Shown one piece after another: positions 1,250 through 32,518 of a stretch of DNA of 64,000 bases. Where the stretch lies: the NCBI GenBank assembly GCA_965228875.1, contig OZ245843.1:3950616-4014615 (forward strand). The letters run 5' to 3'. Within the stretch, counting starts at the first letter, position 1. Each line of letters begins with the position of its first letter. This DNA comes from Thalassobaculaceae bacterium. GTDB taxonomy: Bacteria > Pseudomonadota > Alphaproteobacteria > Thalassobaculales > Thalassobaculaceae. A model generated the notes under the pieces. The model was not told the DNA's origin. It searched no databases and worked only from the letters and a program-made list of their open reading frames with translations. The position numbers were made by a program, and so were the translations under genes.

Positions 1250-2473
1250 ATGCGTCGCGTCGTCGTCACCGGCATCGGTGTCGTCTCCCCGATCGGGAAC
1301 GACAAGGCCGAGGTCACGGAATCCCTGAAGGCCGGACGGTCGGGGATCACCTTCGCCCCCGAGTACAAGGAACTGGGCTTCCGCAGCCATGTGCACGGCT
1401 CGCTCAAGGTCGATCTGGAGGAACGGATCGACCGCAAGCTGCTGCGCTTCATGGGCGACGGCGCCGGCTACAACTACCTCGCCATGGAAGAGGCGCTGGC
1501 CGATAGTGGGCTGGAGCCGTCCGACATCTCCAATCCGCGCACCGGTCTGATCATGGGATCGGGCGGACCGTCGACCCGGAACATGATGCAGGCGTTCGAC
1601 ACGGCGCGGGAGAAGAGTCCCAAGCGGGTCGGCCCCTACATGGTGCCGCGGGTGATGTCCTCCACCAACTCGGCCAATCTGTCGACGATCTACAAGATCA
1701 AGGGGCTCAGCTACTCGATCAGTTCAGCCTGCTCGACCAGTTCGCACTGTATCGGCAATGGCACCGAGCTGATCCAGTACGGCAAGCAGGACATCGTCTT
1801 CGCCGGCGGCGGCGAGGAGCTGCACTGGACCCTGTCGGTGCTGTTCGACGCCATGGGCGCCCTGTCCTCGAAGTACAATGATACGCCGGAGAAGGCGTCG
1901 CGGCCGTACGACGTGAACCGCGACGGGTTCGTCATCGCCGGCGGCGGCGGCGTGGTCGTGCTCGAGGAACTGGAGCACGCGAAGGCGCGCGGTGCGAAGA
2001 TCTACGCCGAGGTCGTCGGCTACGGCGCGACATCCGACGGGGCCGACATGGTGGCGCCGTCGGGCGAGGGCGGACTGCGCTGCATGCAGCTGGCGCTGAC
2101 CGACGTGCATGACCCGGTCGACTACATCAACACCCACGGCACCTCGACGCCGGTGGGCGACATGGTCGAGCTGAATTCGATCCGTGAGGTGTTCCGCGAG
2201 CAGAACCGTCTGCCGGCGATCAGCTCGACCAAGTCGATGACCGGCCACTCCCAGGGAGCGGCGGGCGTGCACGAGGCGATCTACACGCTCCTGATGATGC
2301 ACGGCGGCTTCCTCGCTCCGTCGATCAACATCGAGAGCATGGAGCCGGACGCGGAGTCGATGCCGATCCTGCGCAAGGCGGTGATCGGCCAGGAGATCAA
2401 CGTCGCCATGTCGAACAGCTTCGGCTTCGGCGGCACCAACGCCGTTCTCGCCTTCCGCCGACCGGATTTTTGA
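1250..2473 (+). CDS. fabB: beta-ketoacyl-ACP synthase I
   Basis: [21 protein letters not shown] (catalytic Cys), HGTST and [10 protein letters not shown] motifs. Confidence 0.95.
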
Positions 2474-2537
2474 CCCGGCGCACGCCACCTCCGCCGACAT
2501 GTGACCGGCCGGGGATCGCTTCAGGAACAGGAGCCCC

Positions 2538-3365
2538 ATGACAGATCAGCCCTCCCCCCAGCCGATCATGGCCGGCAAGCGCGGACTGATCGTCGGCGTG
2601 GCCAATGATCGTTCGATCGCCTGGGGGATCGCCGCCGCCGTGGCCGAGCATGGCGCGGAGCTCGCCTTCACCTACCAGAACGAGAGCATCGAGCGTCGGG
2701 TCAGGCCGCTGGCGGAGTCGGTCGGCTCCGACATCGTCATGCCCTGCGACGTGACCGACCATGCGAGCCTGGACTCTGTCGCCGCGACGTTGAAGGAGCG
2801 GTGGGGCTCGATCGATTTCGCCCTGCACGCGGTCGCCTATTCCGACAAGACCGAGCTCAAGGGCAAGTACTACGACACCACGCGGGCCAACTTCACCAAA
2901 ACCATGGACGTGTCCTGCTACTCGTTCACGGCCCTGGCCCAGCGGATGACCCCTCTGATGTCCGTGGGTGGCAGCCTGCTCACCCTGTCCTATCTCGGCG
3001 CCGAGCGCAGCACCCCGAACTACAACGTCATGGGCGTGGCCAAGGCGGCGCTCGAGGCCAGCGTGCGCTATCTCGCCGCCGATCTCGGGCCAGACGGCAT
3101 CCGGGTCAACGCGCTGTCGGCCGGACCGATGCGGACCCTGGCGGGCTCGGCGATCGCGGACGCGCGCTACACCTATCGCTTCTCGGAGAACGCCGCCCCG
3201 CTCGGCCGCAACGCCGCCCTGGACGAGGTCGGCCGGGCCGGGCTCTACCTGCTGTCGAACCTGTCCTCCGGCGTCACCGGCGAGGTGATGCACGTGGATG
3301 GCGGCTTCCATTCCGTCGCGATCCCGCATCCGAGCCGGCGCGAGGGCAACAAGGGCGAGGGCTGA
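2538..3365 (+). CDS. fabI: enoyl-ACP reductase
   Basis: GVANDRSIAWGIA and YNVMGVAKAALEASVRYLA motifs. Confidence 0.95.
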   Translation: MTDQPSPQPIMAGKRGLIVGVANDRSIAWGIAAAVAEHGAELAFTYQNESIERRVRPLAESVGSDIVMPCDVTDHASLDSVAATLKERWGSIDFALHAVAYSDKTELKGKYYDTTRANFTKTMDVSCYSFTALAQRMTPLMSVGGSLLTLSYLGAERSTPNYNVMGVAKAALEASVRYLAADLGPDGIRVNALSAGPMRTLAGSAIADARYTYRFSENAAPLGRNAALDEVGRAGLYLLSNLSSGVTGEVMHVDGGFHSVAIPHPSRREGNKGEG

Positions 3366-3385
3366 GGCGCGTCAGCGCGCGGGCT

Positions 3386-4042
3386 TCATCCGTTCTCCGC
3401 CGCGACTTCCTGCTGTTTGGCGCGCGTCTCCTCGGGCCAGCGCGATTTGATGAAAGCGAGGATCGCCCAGATGTCGGCGTCGGCGAGTTGCCCCTCGAAG
3501 GCCGGCATCTCGTTGCGGTAGCTGGGCGGCGAGAACGGCTGACCGCCGAACTTCGTCACGTCGAAGATGTCGCGGTCGCTGAGCCGCCAGATCGGCGCGC
3601 TGCCGTCGAGCGGCAGGGCCGGTCGGCTGCCGTCCGGATACTCTCCGTCCCAGCCCGGTTTTCCGGCGAGATCGACGCCGTGGCAGTAGGCGCAGTGCTG
3701 ACCGTACAGGCTGCGGCCGAGGCCGACCTGGGCGGCGTTGGTGTGATCGGCCGAGATCGCCGTCTGGTTGGAATAGCGGTCCCAGAACACGCTGCCGCCG
3801 GTGATCATCGCGCCGATGAAGACGGCGGCAGCGAGGAACCGCCCTCGCGGGCCGAGCTTGGCGGCGGCGTCGCCGATCAGGCCTCTGGAGACGGGAGGTG
3901 GGGCGTCCTCCTCGGTGTCGACGAGGCCGCGCAGCCGGCGCGCCGGGTCGATCGTGCGTCCCGGCGCCTTGGGGATCCGCCCGCTCAGCCGCTGTTCGAG
4001 CCTGGCGCGGCGCTCGCGTCGAGCGGTTCTGGCGTCGCGCAT
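3386..4042 (-). CDS. membrane-anchored monoheme c-type cytochrome
   Basis: Hydrophobic TM segment, CAYCH heme motif and distal MPAF Met ligand. Confidence 0.8.
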   Translation of the reverse strand: MRDARTARRERRARLEQRLSGRIPKAPGRTIDPARRLRGLVDTEEDAPPPVSRGLIGDAAAKLGPRGRFLAAAVFIGAMITGGSVFWDRYSNQTAISADHTNAAQVGLGRSLYGQHCAYCHGVDLAGKPGWDGEYPDGSRPALPLDGSAPIWRLSDRDIFDVTKFGGQPFSPPSYRNEMPAFEGQLADADIWAILAFIKSRWPEETRAKQQEVAAENG

Positions 4043-8501: not shown

Positions 8502-9440
8502 TCAGCCGAGGGTGAAGGCGAGGGCGATCAGCAGGCCGGCATCCCGGTTGGCCCAGAAGGTCCGCAGGCAGGCGTGCGGATCGTCCAGATCCGTGACCCA
8601 GAGCTGGCGGGCGAAGTTGACGCCGGCCAGCGCCACCCCGACATAGGCCAGCGGGCCGAGGCCGGCCTGCCACAGGCTGGCGCCGAGCAGCAGTATGGTG
8701 ACGGCGTAGAACACGGCCAGCGCCGGCTTGGTCCTGTCACCCAGGGCCAGGGCCGAGGAGCGCACGCCGACGATGGCATCGTCCTCCTTGTCCTGGTGGG
8801 CGTAGATCGTGTCGTAGCCGAGGGTCCAGAAGAAGCCGGCGGCGTAGGCCAGCAGCGCGGCCGGCGAGATCGTCTCGGTCACCGCCGCGAAGCCCAGCAG
8901 CGCGCCCCAGTTGAAGGTCAGGCCGAGCACCGCCTGGGGCCAGTCGGTCACCCGCTTGGCCGCCGGATAGAGGAACACCAGGATCAGCACCGCCGCACCG
9001 ATCGCCCATGAGGTGGTGTTGAGCTGCAGCAGGATGGCCAGGCCGACGGCGAGCTGGGCGGCGAGGAAGACGACGGCGGCGACCGGGGAGACCGCGCCGC
9101 TGGCCAGCGGCCGGGTGGCGGTGCGCGCCACCTTGGTGTCGATCCTGCGGTCCCAGAGGTCGTTCACCGTACAGCCGGCGCCGCGCATCACCAGGGCGCC
9201 GACCGTGAACAGCACGACCAGCCGGAGCATCTCCAGGATCGGGGCCGCCGTCATCGGGGCGCCGATCGCCTGCCACCCGAGGGCCAGGCCCCACAGGCAG
9301 GGCAGGTAGAGCAGCCACGTGCCGATCGGCCGGTCGAGCCTGGCCAGCCGCGCATAGGGGCGCCAGGAGACCGGCAGCCACCGGTCCACCCAGTTGCCCC
9401 GCGGGATGTCGCTGGCGCTTGAGATGTCCCTCTCGCTCAT
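8502..9440 (-). CDS. ubiA: 4-hydroxybenzoate polyprenyltransferase
   Basis: RLDRPIG, NDLWDRRID and YDTIYAHQDKEDD motifs; start uncertain (9440 or 9452). Confidence 0.92.
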   Translation of the reverse strand: MSERDISSASDIPRGNWVDRWLPVSWRPYARLARLDRPIGTWLLYLPCLWGLALGWQAIGAPMTAAPILEMLRLVVLFTVGALVMRGAGCTVNDLWDRRIDTKVARTATRPLASGAVSPVAAVVFLAAQLAVGLAILLQLNTTSWAIGAAVLILVFLYPAAKRVTDWPQAVLGLTFNWGALLGFAAVTETISPAALLAYAAGFFWTLGYDTIYAHQDKEDDAIVGVRSSALALGDRTKPALAVFYAVTILLLGASLWQAGLGPLAYVGVALAGVNFARQLWVTDLDDPHACLRTFWANRDAGLLIALAFTLG

Positions 9441-26777: not shown

Positions 26778-27803
26778 TCACGCCGCCTTCTTCAGGTGCT
26801 TGGCCACCAGTTCCTCGGCGATCTGCACCGCGTTCAGGGCGGCACCCTTGCGCAGATTGTCGCTGACGCACCAGAACACCAGGCCGTTCTTCACCGTCGG
26901 GTCGACGCGGATGCGGCTGATATAGACCGGATCCTCGCCGGCGCTCTCGACCGGGGTGACGTAGCCCTCGTCGGCGCGATGGTCGACGATCACCAGGCCG
27001 GGGAAGCCCTGCATCGCCTGCCGCGCGCTGTCGGCGTCGATCGGCTTTTTCGTCTCGATGAACACCGCCTCGGAATGGCCGATGAACACCGGCACGCGCA
27101 CGCAGGTGGCGACCACGTCGATGTCCGGGTCGAGGATCTTCTTGGTCTCGACCGTCATCTTCCACTCCTCCTTGGTGAACCCGTCCTCCATGAACTTGTC
27201 GATGTGGGGGATCACGTTGAAGGCGATCTGCTTGGTGAAATTCTCGCGCTCGATCGGGTCGTTCACGTAGACCGAGCGGGTCTGGTTGAACAGCTCGTCC
27301 ATGCCCTCCTTGCCGGCGCCGGAGACCGACTGGTAGGTCGAGACGACCACCCGCTTGATGCCGAAGGCGTCATGCAGCGGCTTCAGCGCCACCACCATCT
27401 GCGCGGTCGAGCAGTTCGGGTTGGCGATGATGTTCTTCTTGCCGTACTTCGCGACCGCGCCCGGATTGACCTCCGGGACGATCAGCGGCACGTCCGGGTC
27501 CATGCGGAAGGCGGAGCTGTTGTCGATCACGACGCAGCCGGCCTGCCCGGCCTTGGGCGCGTACTCCTTGGAGACGTCGCCGCCGGCGGAGAACAGGGCG
27601 ATGTCGGCTCGTGCGAAATCGAACTCGGCCAGGTTCTGAACGGTCAGCGTGCCGTCCTCGCCGTAGGAGACCTCGTTTCCGGCGGAGCGCCCGGAGGCCA
27701 GCGCGATGACCTCGTCGGCCGGGAAGTTGCGCTCGGCCAGGGTGGTCAGCATCTCGCGTCCCACCGCACCCGTGGCGCCGACGACGGCAACTCTGTAGCC
27801 CAT
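26778..27803 (-). CDS. asd: aspartate-semialdehyde dehydrogenase
   Basis: VVGATGAVG, ANPNCST, STYQSVSGAG and DNLRKGAALNAVQIAE. Confidence 0.97.
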   Translation of the reverse strand: MGYRVAVVGATGAVGREMLTTLAERNFPADEVIALASGRSAGNEVSYGEDGTLTVQNLAEFDFARADIALFSAGGDVSKEYAPKAGQAGCVVIDNSSAFRMDPDVPLIVPEVNPGAVAKYGKKNIIANPNCSTAQMVVALKPLHDAFGIKRVVVSTYQSVSGAGKEGMDELFNQTRSVYVNDPIERENFTKQIAFNVIPHIDKFMEDGFTKEEWKMTVETKKILDPDIDVVATCVRVPVFIGHSEAVFIETKKPIDADSARQAMQGFPGLVIVDHRADEGYVTPVESAGEDPVYISRIRVDPTVKNGLVFWCVSDNLRKGAALNAVQIAEELVAKHLKKAA

Positions 27804-27911: not shown

Positions 27912-28025
27912 CTAGCCGGTGGTCTTGGTGGTGGTTTTCGGGGTGGTGAACGCGCAGACGCCGGCGCCGGCCGCCACGGGGGCGGGGCGCAGGAGAAGGT
28001 CAGCCATGGAAGCCGTCGCGTTCAT
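27912..28025 (-). CDS. putative asd leader peptide (Thr/Lys-rich, 37 aa; alternative ATG at 28007)
   Basis: Ends ACC ACC CCG AAA ACC ACC ACC AAG ACC ACC GGC TAG, 108 nt before the asd start, followed by hairpins. Confidence 0.65.
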   Translation of the reverse strand: MNATASMADLLLRPAPVAAGAGVCAFTTPKTTTKTTG

Positions 28026-28123
28026 GGGCAGGACGTATAGGGGAAAACGCGGCTGTGGGGAAGAGCACTTCTGACGGCGACCGGCGCGCGCTAGGGTTGA
28101 GGAGGGAACGCCGGGGGGAAGGG

Positions 28124-31100
28124 ATGAAGCGACTGCGGATCGGGCCTTTCGAGATCGGCCTTGCGAATGTGGGGCTCGCCCTGGGCAAAGAGACGGTCCA
28201 GTTCGCCGCCGAAGATCTGGTCGGCGGCGGGGCATCGACCATTACCAAGATCGTCCTCTCCCAGGTGACCCTCGCCGAAGGAGAAACGGAAACCCCCGAG
28301 TCCCGGGCCACGCTCTGCGTGAACCGCGCGCTGGTCCATGCGGCGATGGAAGTGCTTACCGAGGCGGATCGGCACAGGGACCGCCGGCGGGCGATCAATC
28401 GCAGGGTGGAGCCGACGATCATCACCCTCGATGATCTTGACCCCGAGTTTCTGGAGAAACCCGAAGGCATACCCGTTCGGGAGACGCTTGAACGCGGAGT
28501 CAGCAACGAGTTGACCGAGGCCGGGTTCTCCCCGGAACAGGTGCTGGCGTTCGTCAGTCCATTGCAGGACAGGTTCATCATCGCCCTGCGCGATCTTTGG
28601 AAGCGGATGAAGCTCGATGGCCACACGCCCCGCGCTCTGGGGGTCACACCCGGCCTCGGCCCTGCGGCGGAGCGGGCAAAGCTCTGGAACGAAGCGGAGA
28701 AGGCGCTCATCGCCTGGCCGGACGACCCGGCGGCGAACACCCTGTTCCTTGATCGCGAGCTGTTCCCGAAGCCGTTCTCGATCCGCGACATCCATGTCGA
28801 CCTGCGCGCCTACGAGGTCCTGAAAGACGCGGGCGGCGGCATGGACGCGGACGTTGTCGCGCGGTCCGGCGGCGAAGAGCGCAGGCGCCGCGCGCGGCGG
28901 GTCGAGATCAAGGATGCGGTGACCGACTGGATGAACGACCCGGACGGCGCGCCGATCCGCTTCGTCAGCGGCGGGCCGGGATGCGGGAAATCGACCTTCG
29001 CGCGGATGCTGGCGGCGCGGGTGGCGGCCGATCCCGCCTGGCGGGTGCGGTGCGTCGAGCTGCACATGGTCGGGAAAGGCGATCTCTGGCAGTGGATCAC
29101 GGATACGACGGCGAAATCCCGGACACAGGCACGGGCCATGGTCGAGAGCGCCCTCGCCCTCGCCCGTCGCCGGATGCTGCTGATCCTCGACGGCCTCGAC
29201 GAACTGGCGACGCGCGGTCCGAAGGGGATGGAGCGGGCGGCGGAGATCGCGGGCGAGATCTCGGACCGCCTCCTGGCGTTCAAGGCGGACGGCTCCCACG
29301 TTCGGGCCCTGTTCCTCGGCCGCGATCTTGCGGTGCAGCGGGGTGAGGTCGCGGCCCTCATCCGGGCACGCACGCTGCACGTCATGCCGCTGCTGCCGTC
29401 GGACGATCTGATCCGGAGCATGGAGTGGGAGGGAGACCAGCCGGACGATGAGTTGGTCGGTCTCTTGAACCGGAAGTTCGACGAGGTTGGCGTCGTCACG
29501 CCGCGCATCCCCGAGGCATCGCCGGCGGGATCCGCCGTCCGCGAGTTGCTGGCCACGCCGGTCACCCAGGCGCTGCTCGTGCGCTATCTGGCGGCGCATC
29601 CGCAGGCCCAGGATGGCGACGGCGGTCCCGGCCTGCTCGAGACGCTGGATCGGGCAACCCTCTATTACGATGTGCTGAAGGATACCCATGCCCGGTCCTG
29701 GGGCCGGCTGTCCGGGACGGAGTTGAACGCGCTGCCGCAGTTCGGGCCGTTCCTGCGCTTCATGGAGGATGTGGCGCTGGCCTGTTTCCAGGACTCGACG
29801 CGCGCCGCCACGGTGGAGGCCATCGCCAGGCTCCTGCCGGACCAGGCGTTGCGCAGCGATCTGCGCCTGGCGGCGCGGAAGAAGGACATCGTCCCGGAGC
29901 AGGCGCTTCTGGCCTTCCATGTGCGGTTCCGGGGCGATGTCGGGGACCGGCGGATCGAATTCACCCACAAGTCCTTCGCCGACTACCTGCTGGCGCGGCG
30001 GTTGCTGCGGGCGGCGCGGGAGGGGGTGGGGCTCGGCGCATGGGGGGCGCTGTTCGGGGCGTTCCGGATCGAGATGGCGGTGGTCGACTTCCTGCGGCCC
30101 GAGGCGGCGCGGCAGCGGGCCGCCGGCGAGACCGGTACCGGCAAGACTGGTTCCGGCGAGCGTGCTACCGGCGAGCTCGCGGCGGGGGATGCGCGCGACC
30201 ATCTGGCCGGCCTGCTGGCAGAGGCGGTCGGGCCGGGATTTCCGATCGCCTCCCTGGCGGCGGCGATGGGCGACGCACCGGGGACGGGCGATCTCGCCCG
30301 AAGGGTCGCCGATGGCGAGGTCGCGCTGCTGGCGACGCTGGACGCGGTGTGCCGGGCACTCGACACCGAAGAGGAACCCGCCCGCGCCACCATCGACTGG
30401 CCGGACGAATGGGCCGCGTGGCGGATGATCGGGAGGCAGCCGCCGCCATCCGACGATTTCGACGTTCTGATGCGTCGCAAGCCGCCGACCGATCCGTTCC
30501 GCGAATGTCTGGGGCGATTGATCCATGTCATGGACAGGACGGTGTCTCGGGATATGGAGTCTTCAATCGCCGGGGCCGCCGAGGAAATGCCCCGGCCCCG
30601 GCGATTGCGGCTGAAAAACGCGAACCTTCTGGGCGCGAACCTTCGTGGCGCGGACCTTCAGCGCGCGGACCTTGAGCGCGCGGACCTTCAGCGCGCGGAC
30701 CTTGAGCGCGCGGACCTTCAGCGCGCGAACCTTCTGGGCGCGGACCTTCGTGGCGCGGTCCTTCAGCGCGCGAACCTTCGGGACGCGGACCTTCGTGGCG
30801 CGGACCTTCAGCGCGCGAACCTTCTGGGCGCGGACCTTCGTGGCGCGGTCCTTCAGCGCGCGAACCTTCGGGACGCGGACCTTCGGGACGCGGACCTTGA
30901 GCGCGCGGACCTTGAGGGCGCGGTCCTTCAGCGCGCGAACCTTCTGGGCGCGGACCTTGAGGGCGCGGACCTTGAGGGCGCGGACCTTCGGGACGCGGAC
31001 CTTCGTGGCGCGGTCCTTCAGCGCGCGAACCTTCGGGGGGTGAAGGGGGGGGAGGGCGAAACCGGGATCCGCGCCGGCCGCAACCTCGAGCACGCGATCC

Positions 31101-31141
31101 TGACGCCGGCGCTGCGGGAGTCCCTCGGCCCCGAGCCGTAG
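28124..31141 (+). CDS. NACHT/STAND-like P-loop NTPase with C-terminal pentapeptide repeats
   Basis: IRDIHVDL pre-NTPase motif, Walker A GGPGCGKS, Walker B LLILDGLDE, EFTHKSFADYL winged-helix motif and 28 A(D/N/V)Lxx repeats. Confidence 0.85.
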   Translation: MKRLRIGPFEIGLANVGLALGKETVQFAAEDLVGGGASTITKIVLSQVTLAEGETETPESRATLCVNRALVHAAMEVLTEADRHRDRRRAINRRVEPTIITLDDLDPEFLEKPEGIPVRETLERGVSNELTEAGFSPEQVLAFVSPLQDRFIIALRDLWKRMKLDGHTPRALGVTPGLGPAAERAKLWNEAEKALIAWPDDPAANTLFLDRELFPKPFSIRDIHVDLRAYEVLKDAGGGMDADVVARSGGEERRRRARRVEIKDAVTDWMNDPDGAPIRFVSGGPGCGKSTFARMLAARVAADPAWRVRCVELHMVGKGDLWQWITDTTAKSRTQARAMVESALALARRRMLLILDGLDELATRGPKGMERAAEIAGEISDRLLAFKADGSHVRALFLGRDLAVQRGEVAALIRARTLHVMPLLPSDDLIRSMEWEGDQPDDELVGLLNRKFDEVGVVTPRIPEASPAGSAVRELLATPVTQALLVRYLAAHPQAQDGDGGPGLLETLDRATLYYDVLKDTHARSWGRLSGTELNALPQFGPFLRFMEDVALACFQDSTRAATVEAIARLLPDQALRSDLRLAARKKDIVPEQALLAFHVRFRGDVGDRRIEFTHKSFADYLLARRLLRAAREGVGLGAWGALFGAFRIEMAVVDFLRPEAARQRAAGETGTGKTGSGERATGELAAGDARDHLAGLLAEAVGPGFPIASLAAAMGDAPGTGDLARRVADGEVALLATLDAVCRALDTEEEPARATIDWPDEWAAWRMIGRQPPPSDDFDVLMRRKPPTDPFRECLGRLIHVMDRTVSRDMESSIAGAAEEMPRPRRLRLKNANLLGANLRGADLQRADLERADLQRADLERADLQRANLLGADLRGAVLQRANLRDADLRGADLQRANLLGADLRGAVLQRANLRDADLRDADLERADLEGAVLQRANLLGADLEGADLEGADLRDADLRGAVLQRANLRGVKGGEGETGIRAGRNLEHAILTPALRESLGPEP
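30620..31039 (+). repeat. 28 x 15-bp coding tandem repeat (pentapeptide repeat)
   Basis: Every unit reads GCG-(GAC/AAC/GTC)-CTT-NNN-NNN. Confidence 0.95.
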
Positions 31142-31183
31142 CCGCAGGACCGCGACCTGCCCGAGGACTGAGCCTGGCCCCTC

Positions 31184-31383
31184 GTCATCCCGGCGGATGC
31201 CGGAATCTCTCGGGACCGGAACCTCTTGGGGCCTGCGCCTGGGCGGCGCGGGCGGGGCGGACCCGTCTTCTCCGACCGCCGAGCGGACGGGTGGGCCCGG
31301 GCACAAGGCCGGGGAGAGAGCCCGCGAGGGGCGGGGCGCCTGAGGAAGACCGGATGGAGGTCCCGGATCAGGTCCGGGACGAC
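31184..31383. repeat. REP-like inverted doublet (GTCATCCCGG type)
   Basis: GTCATCCCGGCGGATGCCGGAATCTC (31184-31209) and GAGGTCCCGGATCAGGTCCGGGACGAC (31357-31383), between convergent genes. Confidence 0.7.
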
Positions 31384-31405
31384 CGGCGGGTGGGACGCCC
31401 CGGCG

Positions 31406-32518
31406 TCACACCAGCTTGTCCAGCTCCTTGAGGATGCTGTCGGTCATGGTCGCGGTGGAGACCTTGGCCTTGCCCGGGGCCATGATGTCGGCGGTGCGCA
31501 TGCCGCCGGCCAGCACGTTGTCGATCGCCTTCTCCAGCAGGTCGGCGTCCTCGCCCATGTCGAAGCTGTAGCGCAGCAGCATGGCGAAGCTCAGCATCTC
31601 GGCGATCGGGTTGGCCATGCCCTTGCCGGCGATGTCCGGGGCGGAGCCGTGGACCGGCTCGTACAGGGCGTGGCGCTTGCCGGTGGTCGGATCCTCGGCG
31701 CCGAGCGAGGCCGAGGGCAGCATGCCGAGCGAGCCGGTCAGCATGGCCGCGCAGTCGGACAGCAGGTCGCCGAACAGGTTGTCGGTGACGATCACGTCGA
31801 ACTGCTTCGGCGAGCGGACAAGCTGCATGGCGCAGTTGTCGGCGAACATGTTCTCGTATTCCAGGCCCTCGCCCTCGGCCTTGTGCAGGCCGGTCATGAC
31901 CTCGCGCCAGAGCACGCCGGACATCATGACGTTGGCCTTCTCCACCGAGGTCACCTTGCCGCGGCGCTTGCGCGCCAGGTCGAAGGCGACCCGGCCGATG
32001 CGCTCGATCTCCGGCGTGGTGTAGGCCTGGGTGTCGTAGCCGCGCTTGGTGCCGTCGGGCAGGTCCTCGATGCCGCGCGGCTCGCAGAAATACACACCGC
32101 CGGTCAGCTCGCGCAGGATCATGATGTCGAGGCCGGAGACCAGCTCCGGCTTCAGCGACGAGTTCTCGACCATCGAGGGGAAGACCATCGCCGGGCGCAG
32201 GTTGGCGAACAGGTCCATCTCCTTGCGCAGGCGCAGCAGGCCGCGCTCCGGCTTCAGCTCGAACGGCAGGTCGTCGTATTTCGGGCCGCCGACCGCGCCG
32301 AACAGGACGGCGTCGGCATGGGTGGCGTCGGTCATGGTCTCGTCGGTCAGCGCCGTGCCGTGGGCGTCGTAGGCGGCGCCGCCGACCAGGCCCTCGTCGA
32401 TGTCGAAGGACACCGAGCGCTTCTTGGCCATCCAGTCGACCACGCGCAGCGTCTCGCCGACGACCTCGGGGCCGATGCCGTCACCCGGCAGCACCAGCAG
32501 TTTCTTGTTCGACGCCAT
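31406..32518 (-). CDS. leuB: 3-isopropylmalate dehydrogenase
   Basis: [19 protein letters not shown] and [13 protein letters not shown] motifs. Confidence 0.96.

Follow-up and report, generated by a model that had tools for sequence, protein, structure and literature searches.

The window analysed here is a 64,000-nucleotide stretch of the genome of a Thalassobaculaceae bacterium (GenBank assembly GCA_965228875.1, contig OZ245843.1, forward-strand positions 3,950,616 to 4,014,615), and our subject is a single gene within it, at window positions 28124-31141, which stands between asd and leuB. Its product, P0001, is a real bacterial NLR-type (NACHT) protein, in which a STAND-class NTPase is preceded by what appears to be a cryptic NNH3 domain and followed by a beta-helix of pentapeptide repeats. 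The gene is an accessory insertion, and its two halves seem to have different histories. The features of the locus, in window positions, are as follows.

26778-27803, minus strand: asd, the left flank (Pfam on the orthologue in L027, a metagenome contig, with which it shares 94% protein identity)
28064-28123, plus strand: 5' leader of the inserted segment (BLAST across the junction and printed borders; congener homology ends at ~28063-28077)
28124-31141, plus strand: NLR-type gene encoding P0001, with NNH3-like, NACHT, C-terminal helical and pentapeptide-repeat parts
28148-28858, plus strand: predicted divergent NNH3 helical domain, residues ~9-245 (hhalign, ESM Atlas, models)
28859-29443, plus strand: pre-NACHT strands and NACHT nucleotide-binding domain, residues 246-440, including sensor-1 R400 (Pfam, alignment)
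28970-28993, plus strand: Walker A, residues 283-290
29177-29203, plus strand: Walker B LLILDGLDE, residues 352-360
29444-30028, plus strand: helical domain 1 and winged-helix domain, residues 441-635, with EFTHKSFADYL at 612-622 and H615 (model, Foldseek, alignment)
30013-30046, plus strand: putative recombination breakpoint between NOD and sensor modules, residues ~630-641 (maximum chi-square, per-domain identities)
30029-30568, plus strand: C-terminal helical domain, residues 636-815, conserved with P0008, P0009 and P0007 (alignment, model)
30620-31039, plus strand: pentapeptide-repeat beta-helix of 28 in-register units, residues 833-972 (Pfam, 15-nt tandem array, model, Foldseek)
31040-31138, plus strand: conserved C-terminal cap, residues 973-1005 (alignment, model)
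31142-31405, no strand: downstream intergenic region with GC-rich hairpins at ~31260-31292 and ~31359-31386, which resemble repetitive extragenic palindrome (REP)/miniature inverted-repeat transposable element (MITE)-like units of congeners
31406-32518, minus strand: leuB, the right flank (comparison with L027)

The open reading frame (ORF) encodes 1005 residues, and the three motifs quoted for it in a preliminary description of the sequence are all found at their residues: GGPGCGKS (283-290), LLILDGLDE (352-360) and EFTHKSFADYL (612-622). Domain analysis bears out the tripartite layout proposed there for an NLR-type protein, and the gene does lie on the opposite strand to its neighbours, divergent from asd and convergent with leuB, beyond which leuD and then leuC follow on the minus strand. 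The position of its ATG is the start in all seven homologs aligned with P0001. An alternative GTG start at 28055 is unlikely, both for this reason and because it falls in DNA that is conserved in congeners without the NLR gene. The full-length AlphaFold2 model of P0001 has a predicted local distance difference test score (pLDDT) of 82.6 and a predicted template-modelling score of 0.85. GC content at third codon positions (GC3) is 0.84 in the NLR gene versus 0.90-0.97 in the flanking genes. A sigma-70 promoter scan found no sites, the only terminator-like site lies within the NLR gene on the opposite strand, and an Rfam scan gave no relevant match.

The central NTPase belongs to the STAND/NACHT class, on which sequence signature, Pfam and structural matching agree. 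P0001 passes the Pfam cut-offs narrowly, with 28.6 bits for NACHT (cut-off 26.7) and 29.5 bits for NPHP3_N (cut-off 24.8); of seven close homologs, three pass the NACHT cut-off and four fall just below it. The NACHT signature given in the preprint by Kibby et al. is D[GAS]hDE, a small residue after the Walker B aspartate and then two acidic residues. P0001 has this signature as LDGLDE, together with a Walker A motif of the form GxxxxGK[ST] (GGPGCGKS). G283, P285, G288, K289, G357, D359, R400, H615 and F618 are invariant across 87 aligned relatives, at least 90% of which also keep D356 and E360. H615 lies in a winged-helix extension, modelled as strands and helices at residues 561-633. Foldseek matched the P0001 model to NLRC4 (4kxf, E 1.7e-8) as well as to NOD2, NLRP3 and NAIP, all at probability 1.00. 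An NTPase outside the STAND class, which the preliminary description had allowed for, can be set aside because of the signature, the invariant residues and these structural matches. Walker A, Walker B, sensor-1 and the winged-helix His are intact in P0001, which is probably active.

The N-terminal region, earlier called unrecognised, is instead a divergent (cryptic) NNH3 domain, to judge from profile comparison. Distant homologs recovered by sequence search bear Pfam NNH3 (PF22735, 'NACHT N-terminal helical domain 3'), a model that matches neither P0001 at E<=1 nor its seven close homologs at E<=0.01. When the N-terminal profile of the family was aligned by hhalign with the NNH3 region of three proteins, the match had a probability of 98.3% (E 1.1e-14, 215 columns), pairing residues 9-243 of P0001 with residues 21-247 of P0004. 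ESM Atlas likewise gave, for residues 1-245, a top cluster named for NNH3 (score 0.96, 183 of 256 features). The domain is all-helical: its helices span residues 38-223, and the pre-NACHT strands and P-loop come next. Modelled alone from 98 sequences, it forms a helical bundle (pLDDT 75.5), ahead of which comes a low-confidence N-terminal segment and after which two strands lead into the NACHT core. The first 35 residues of P0001 are a low-confidence, Gly/Ala-rich and moderately hydrophobic helix; in three of nine family members examined, the most hydrophobic 19-residue stretch lies at residues ~10-40 (Kyte-Doolittle 1.6-2.0). NNH domains are named in the passages of the Kibby et al. preprint used here without a stated function.

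At the other end of the protein, Pfam Pentapeptide (PF00805) matches at E 6.6e-70. Tandem Repeats Finder reports 28 copies of a 15-nt unit at 30619-31038 (81% matches), an array that translates into 28 in-register pentapeptide units at residues 833-972, or ~seven coils, and the model places strands at 5-residue spacing with pLDDT mostly >90. In standard pentapeptide geometry the conserved Ala and Leu point inwards and the variable positions are exposed. Foldseek matched this region to the pentapeptide structures 2j8k, 3du1 and 2xtw, the proteins matched being Np275/276, HetL, Rfr23 and QnrB1. In NCBIfam only generic pentapeptide matches were obtained: the Alr5209-type model passes (132.8 bits, cut-off 125) and the HetL model scores far under its cut-off. 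Short-read contigs break within the array, as with X1, which spans 27933-30677 and then 31008-31460, and so we make no claim on repeat-number variation; the array of P0002, taken from a Logan contig, has 12 in-register units versus 28 in P0001 and may reflect assembly collapse.

Two further observations concern the repeats. The genome contains many other stretches that code for pentapeptide repeats, with 35 additional matches to the repeat region (on contig G000:C1, for example, at 1737915-1741015, 1925135-1927049, 3537579-3538763 and 4523915-4525830). Some of these are clustered, some lie in open frames as long as 1097 residues, and the NNH3-NACHT part is absent from all of them. Just upstream of the array and still within the coding region, the two arms of a perfect 15-nt inverted repeat flank a 14-nt spacer (30564-30607). 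They map to residues ~814-828, which form a low-confidence linker in the model, and might fold into a hairpin or serve as a recombination site.

P0001 adds a new, divergent member to an architecture already known. An exhaustive HMMER search with residues 1-800 against 1.84 billion representatives returned 1032 matches at E<=1e-3, 695 at E<=1e-10 and 66 at E<=1e-30, of which only seven lie below E 1e-80 (P0002, P0003, P0007, the fragment P0012, P0013, P0011 and P0014). This close clade is a separate, long-branched group in the tree. Among the next 50 relatives, NNH3 is present in 44, pentapeptide repeats in 42 and both in 38, and across ~700 representative clusters (50% identity) the prevailing architecture is NNH3-NACHT-pentapeptide. 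On these counts and the shared architecture, P0001 therefore belongs to a small, divergent clade within a large type that had already been catalogued, and the label 'orphan' given to it at first was wrong. Fused longer homologs of 1760-5000 residues were sought and none was found, which is weak evidence, and a scan of genome contigs with the A1 query gave only two weak loci (L016 and L017).

The gene is an insertion at the asd-leuB junction. A DNA search of the genus found asd and leuB adjacent on one contig, with an NLR-free site, in seven of ten congeners (G001, G003, G005, G006, G007, G008 and G009), where the gap between the two genes is 102-464 bp. The remaining three are uninformative: the asd contig of G004 lacks leuB, and G002 and G010 are 1.5-Mb genomes with a weak asd match. 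Homology between the window and its congeners stops at ~28063-28077 and restarts at 31406, the leuB stop codon, so that 3.3 kb is present only in this genome among the congeners. No integrase, tRNA or target duplication was seen at the insertion. Genome surveys with residues 1-800 gave few matches at E<=1e-15. Of 63 genomes in the order, two had one, namely this genome and G018 (E 3e-41); of the 401 genomes sampled from the class, two again did so, this genome and G141, where the NACHT region alone matched. The idea of an acquired gene is thereby upheld, and universal synteny at the leuB-asd junction, which had also been considered, is not found. Contigs of two metagenome studies (X3 and X4) span both junctions of the P0001 allele at ~98-99% identity; they are not independent support because they possibly come from the same population as the genome.

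A REP-like doublet had also been proposed downstream of the gene, and this description stands in part. The GC-rich hairpins of the intergenic region resemble REP/MITE-like units that occupy the asd-leuB gap of the seven empty-site congeners, and short pieces of the region match many sites in congeners. Multi-copy status is not borne out in this genome, where BLAST found only two other short matches and the two hairpin patterns have one copy each. The 264-nt region folds no better than shuffled sequences (z -0.43). In the congeners themselves, the gaps (L018-L024) hold one to three copies of a ~100-nt unit of this kind, each with two hairpins, and the copy number varies between species. Even where the NLR gene is absent, the asd-leuB site forms a minor hot spot for structural variation.

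A second allele occupies the same site. The metagenome contig L027 has the gene order of the window, thrC, M16 peptidase, asd (minus), NLR gene (plus), leuB (minus) and leuC, and its NLR product is P0008. Proteins encoded in the flanks are closely similar between L027 and the window (asd 94%, leuB 97%, leuC 94%, thrC and the peptidase 86-87%), whereas P0008 and P0001 are only 42% identical. DNA similarity to L027 crosses the left junction as far as 28102 and returns in the last third of the NLR gene. The DNA of the flanks is 85-89% identical to the window in L027, versus 88-95% in the empty-site congeners. The NLR gene would have been either lost repeatedly or moved between lineages by recombination in conserved flanks.

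The alleles are themselves mosaic. Identity between P0001 and P0008 rises from 22-40% in the first 600 residues to 55-85% in the final 400. P0001 and P0003 show the reverse, with 47-58% identity in the N-terminal half, falling to 36% across the C-terminal helical region and to 9% immediately ahead of the repeats. P0009 and P0013 show a similar step, with 88% identity at residues 40-595 and 51% at 596-830. A maximum chi-square test on informative sites, with 2000 shuffles, located the break just past the invariant winged-helix motif, at residues 630-641. To the left of it P0001 resembles P0003 at 173 sites to 42, and to the right it resembles P0008 at 64 to 7; P0009 likewise resembles P0013 at 358 to 8 on the left and P0001 at 41 to 16 on the right. 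In both cases none of 2000 shuffles reaches the statistic, which in the control triplet P0008/P0013/P0009 is reached by 197 of 2000 and is not significant. An approximately unbiased (AU) test of the N-terminal half rejected the clade of P0001/P0002 with P0008/P0009 (p 0.0016). For the short C-terminal part (235 residues), the AU tests did not reject the topology of the N-terminal half (p 0.32-0.51), and since they reject nothing, the case for recombination is carried by site patterns and pairwise identities. The best reading of these patterns is that a NOD module (NNH3-NACHT-winged-helix domain (WHD)) may have been exchanged against a sensor module (helical domain and repeats); lineage-specific rate shifts are a less probable alternative.

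In the window and in L027 the close clade has asd and leuB as its neighbours. In L028 the neighbours are polA and the genes of a YHS-domain protein and a glyoxalase-family protein, and polA recurs in L030; the ORF layout of L029 is the same as that of L028. In L028 (7642-10626) and L030 (12853-15837), NLR homologs with 33-34% identity are followed directly by polA on the same strand. The L028 homolog is P0011, and no protein in the comparison set is identical to the L030 product. The longest polA frame of L028 overlaps the NLR stop by ~35 nt, which may only reflect the choice of start codon.

A PADLOC scan of neighbouring genes covered 96 ORFs in 12 of 17 loci, a small sample that left out L029 (a duplicate of L028) and the short contigs L032-L034 and L036. 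Ten of the 96 matched at E<=1e-8, most of them apparently through generic cross-matches (PolA, ABC-like ATPases, cyclases, HTH), and plausible defence-type neighbours occur in only two of the 12 loci (L035 and L037), both belonging to distant relatives. L037 encodes a 640-residue neighbour with a C-terminal TIR-like domain (2023-3942, minus strand), and L035 a Uma2/PDC-S03 protein (8808-9398, plus strand) 15 nt upstream of the distant family member and on its strand. No conserved partner gene was found in the scanned loci, and the system is therefore read as a single-gene one. The scanned neighbourhoods give no guilt-by-association support for defence.

As to function, we lean, with little more than even confidence, towards P0001 being a single-gene accessory conflict or anti-phage sensor that would work like other NLRs. 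Counted for a sensor are NACHT membership, the NLR-like model, the NNH3 match and the architecture shared with relatives, as well as the patchy presence of the gene, the diverged allele at the same site, module shuffling, variable surface charge and the lower GC3. Kibby et al. report in their preprint that more distant NACHT relatives confer phage protection on E. coli, and they list pentapeptide repeats among the predicted sensor repeats. By analogy with tested bacterial and animal NACHT proteins, from which each step is taken, the C-terminal helical and repeat module would at rest lock the NACHT domain in a closed, ADP-bound form. A phage-derived macromolecule, or one of the host perturbed by phage, would bind the exposed, highly charged faces of the beta-helix and release the lock. 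Nucleotide exchange and NACHT oligomerisation would then gather the N-terminal NNH3 domains. These might produce the output themselves, possibly by using the N-terminal Gly/Ala-rich helix at the membrane, or might recruit a host factor. Growth arrest or abortive infection would be the outcome.

A number of results weigh against a conflict or anti-phage sensor. The PADLOC check proposed in the preliminary description gave no significant family match for P0001 in PADLOC-DB v2 (best mad8, E 0.0012, and TRIP13, E 0.0042, both in the P-loop region only), and the 12 loci scanned are housekeeping neighbourhoods with no defence-island context. No functional study of the NNH3/pentapeptide branch was found in the literature; in the passages searched of a STAND survey (Nature 2026, PMC13581612) and in seven of its supplements, pentapeptide, NNH and PF22735 are unmentioned. 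Fold relatives of NNH3 were wanting as well, with a best Foldseek E of 0.59 against the PDB and a best Z of 6.5 in a wide VIA-align search, where the matches were generic helical bundles at the noise level of helical models; the absence of a usable match does not show a new fold. No enzyme signature was seen in NNH3, and with neither such a signature nor a structural relative to draw on, we purely infer the output step. To these points must be added the AU tests of the C-terminal part.

The same gene could instead encode a non-immune signalling or regulatory STAND NTPase. In this NTP-gated switch the repeats would detect a macromolecule or metabolite of the cell itself, and the protein would scaffold a cellular response. 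We regard this as possible but doubtful. It would suit the setting of the close clade, whose members all lie among housekeeping genes (asd/leuB, polA, glyoxalase, ferritin, Na/H exchanger), with no defence islands, mobile-element genes or PADLOC match in the loci examined, and it would suit an N-terminal domain that has no recognisable killing activity; AfsR is an example of a bacterial NLR-related protein in regulation. However, P0001 has no DNA-binding or other output domain, a regulator would hardly be expected to be so extremely patchy (2 of 63 genomes in the order, 2 of 401 in the class, seven empty congener sites), and alleles at one site that have diverged far beyond their flanks and shuffled their modules are hallmarks of conflict genes. 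Allelic divergence could also be read as kin recognition or allorecognition, the alleles telling self from non-self like fungal HET-type NLRs, a parallel drawn in the discussion of the Kibby et al. preprint. An allelic series at a fixed site, presence/absence polymorphism and mosaic alleles with internally very similar repeats would all be expected of such a locus. Against it stand the lack of a partner locus or of a secretion or transfer context in the loci examined, the biology of free-living unicellular bacteria without cytoplasmic fusion, and the documentation of only two same-site alleles, and we consider it the least credible of the explanations, extremely improbable as it stands.

The preliminary description had proposed a defence NLR in which the pentapeptide beta-helix acts as a DNA mimic, baiting phage DNA-binding proteins, and this we judge very unlikely. 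The fold does resemble QnrB1 and other pentapeptide proteins, and some alleles are strongly acidic, the repeat region of P0008 carrying a net charge of -17 and only three basic residues. Yet the surface of the P0001 array combines 26 acidic with 21 basic residues (net charge -5), and because net charge runs from -17 to +1 across the family, acidity is not a conserved family property. The NCBIfam models of the known mimics score far below their cut-offs on P0001 (Qnr 41.8 bits against 240, MfpA 43.6 against 360), the best structural matches are generic pentapeptide solenoids, and seven coils are estimated to be only ~one turn of DNA long. The charge range thus argues against DNA mimicry as a conserved principle and fits alleles with different ligand surfaces.

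A broader proposal joins the locus with its N-terminal domain: asd-leuB would be a fixed-site, presence/absence NLR locus that swaps modules, and NNH3 a new, non-enzymatic executioner domain. On the side of the locus, whole NOD and sensor modules would be exchanged by recombination at the invariant winged-helix motif; on that of NNH3, oligomerisation would expose the Gly/Ala-rich helix, which would then attack the membrane like CC- or HeLo-type NLR outputs. As a conjunction we think it unlikely.

What these results change at once is annotation, from 'pentapeptide repeat-containing protein' to NACHT/NLR-type protein with a cryptic NNH3 domain, and NNH3-NACHT-pentapeptide emerges as a large branch of bacterial NLR relatives. 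Some interest attaches to its fixed-site, presence/absence-polymorphic, module-shuffled allele series. The locus is a compact natural experiment, with one gene, a defined chromosomal site and empty-site congeners. The same-site allele has the sensor half in common with P0001 but not the NOD half, and in other alleles it is the NOD half that is shared and the sensor half that differs. Such natural chimeras are suited to mapping which module sets specificity and which gives output. The alignments suggest that bacterial NLRs may diversify by module exchange at the WHD boundary, much like eukaryotic NLRs.

Two observations touch the surroundings of the gene and the genus. At 27912-28025 on the minus strand, ~108 nt upstream of the asd start, there is a 37-residue ORF with a Thr/Lys-rich tail (...TPKTTTKTTG), kept in all eight relatives examined (seven congeners and L027). 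Between it and asd lie stable hairpins (minimum free energy -53.4 kcal/mol over 126 nt), and Rfam has no match at this ORF and asd leader. The enzyme encoded by asd belongs to the Thr/Lys/Met pathway. The ORF and hairpins look like a putative leader-peptide attenuator for asd. The second observation concerns G002 and G010, which are filed in the genus at 1.5 Mb and 99% completeness versus 4.6-5.6 Mb in the others, and whose asd region matched at only 67-68% identity; they represent either an odd genus assignment or a strongly reduced lineage.

Among known systems, those nearest to P0001 are the NNH3-NACHT-pentapeptide proteins (PF22735, PF05729, PF00805; P0016, P0019, P0004), which have the same domain order within 850-1050 residues and share with it SGGPGSGKS, LLIFDGLDEL, GRDLAVQ and FEFTHKSF.EYL.ARR. 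They are only 22-30% identical to P0001, and Pfam NNH3 is detected in them, whereas it is detected in none of the eight close-clade proteins scanned. The tested bNACHT proteins (bNACHT01, 11, 16, 25 and others), as presented in the Kibby et al. preprint, resemble P0001 in having a NACHT domain with D[GAS]hDE and the winged-helix His, an order of N-terminal output, NACHT and C-terminal sensor, and a single-gene system; they differ in bearing LRR, HEAT, REase, TIR, TM, NNH1 or NCH1, as given in the legend of its Fig. S3. Kibby et al. are also the source for hyperactivation of bNACHT16 and bNACHT25 by substitutions at or near the winged-helix His. Animal NLRs (NLRC4, NOD2, NLRP3) are the best structural matches to the NACHT-helical domain-WHD part (E 1.7e-8 to 1e-6, probability 1.00), at 10-14% sequence identity, and have LRR sensors and CARD or PYD adaptors where P0001 has a pentapeptide beta-helix and NNH3. 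With stand-alone pentapeptide proteins (Np275/276, HetL, Rfr23, QnrB1, MfpA; Foldseek E 8e-9 to 8e-6), P0001 shares the right-handed quadrilateral beta-helix of A(D/N)LXX units; in P0001, unlike in these, the helix is the C-terminal module of an NTPase, and its charge is not consistently acidic.

Repeat reshuffling is known in the fungal HET-E/D and NWD-type NLRs. These resemble the asd-leuB locus, a general parallel that follows the discussion of the Kibby et al. preprint, in combining NACHT with internally near-identical repeats and allelic polymorphism, and differ in their WD40, ANK or TPR repeats, their HET or HeLo N-terminal domains and their function in allorecognition. If the joint proposal for the locus and NNH3 were true, asd-leuB would parallel, in bacteria, the allelic series of NLRs found in plants and fungi.

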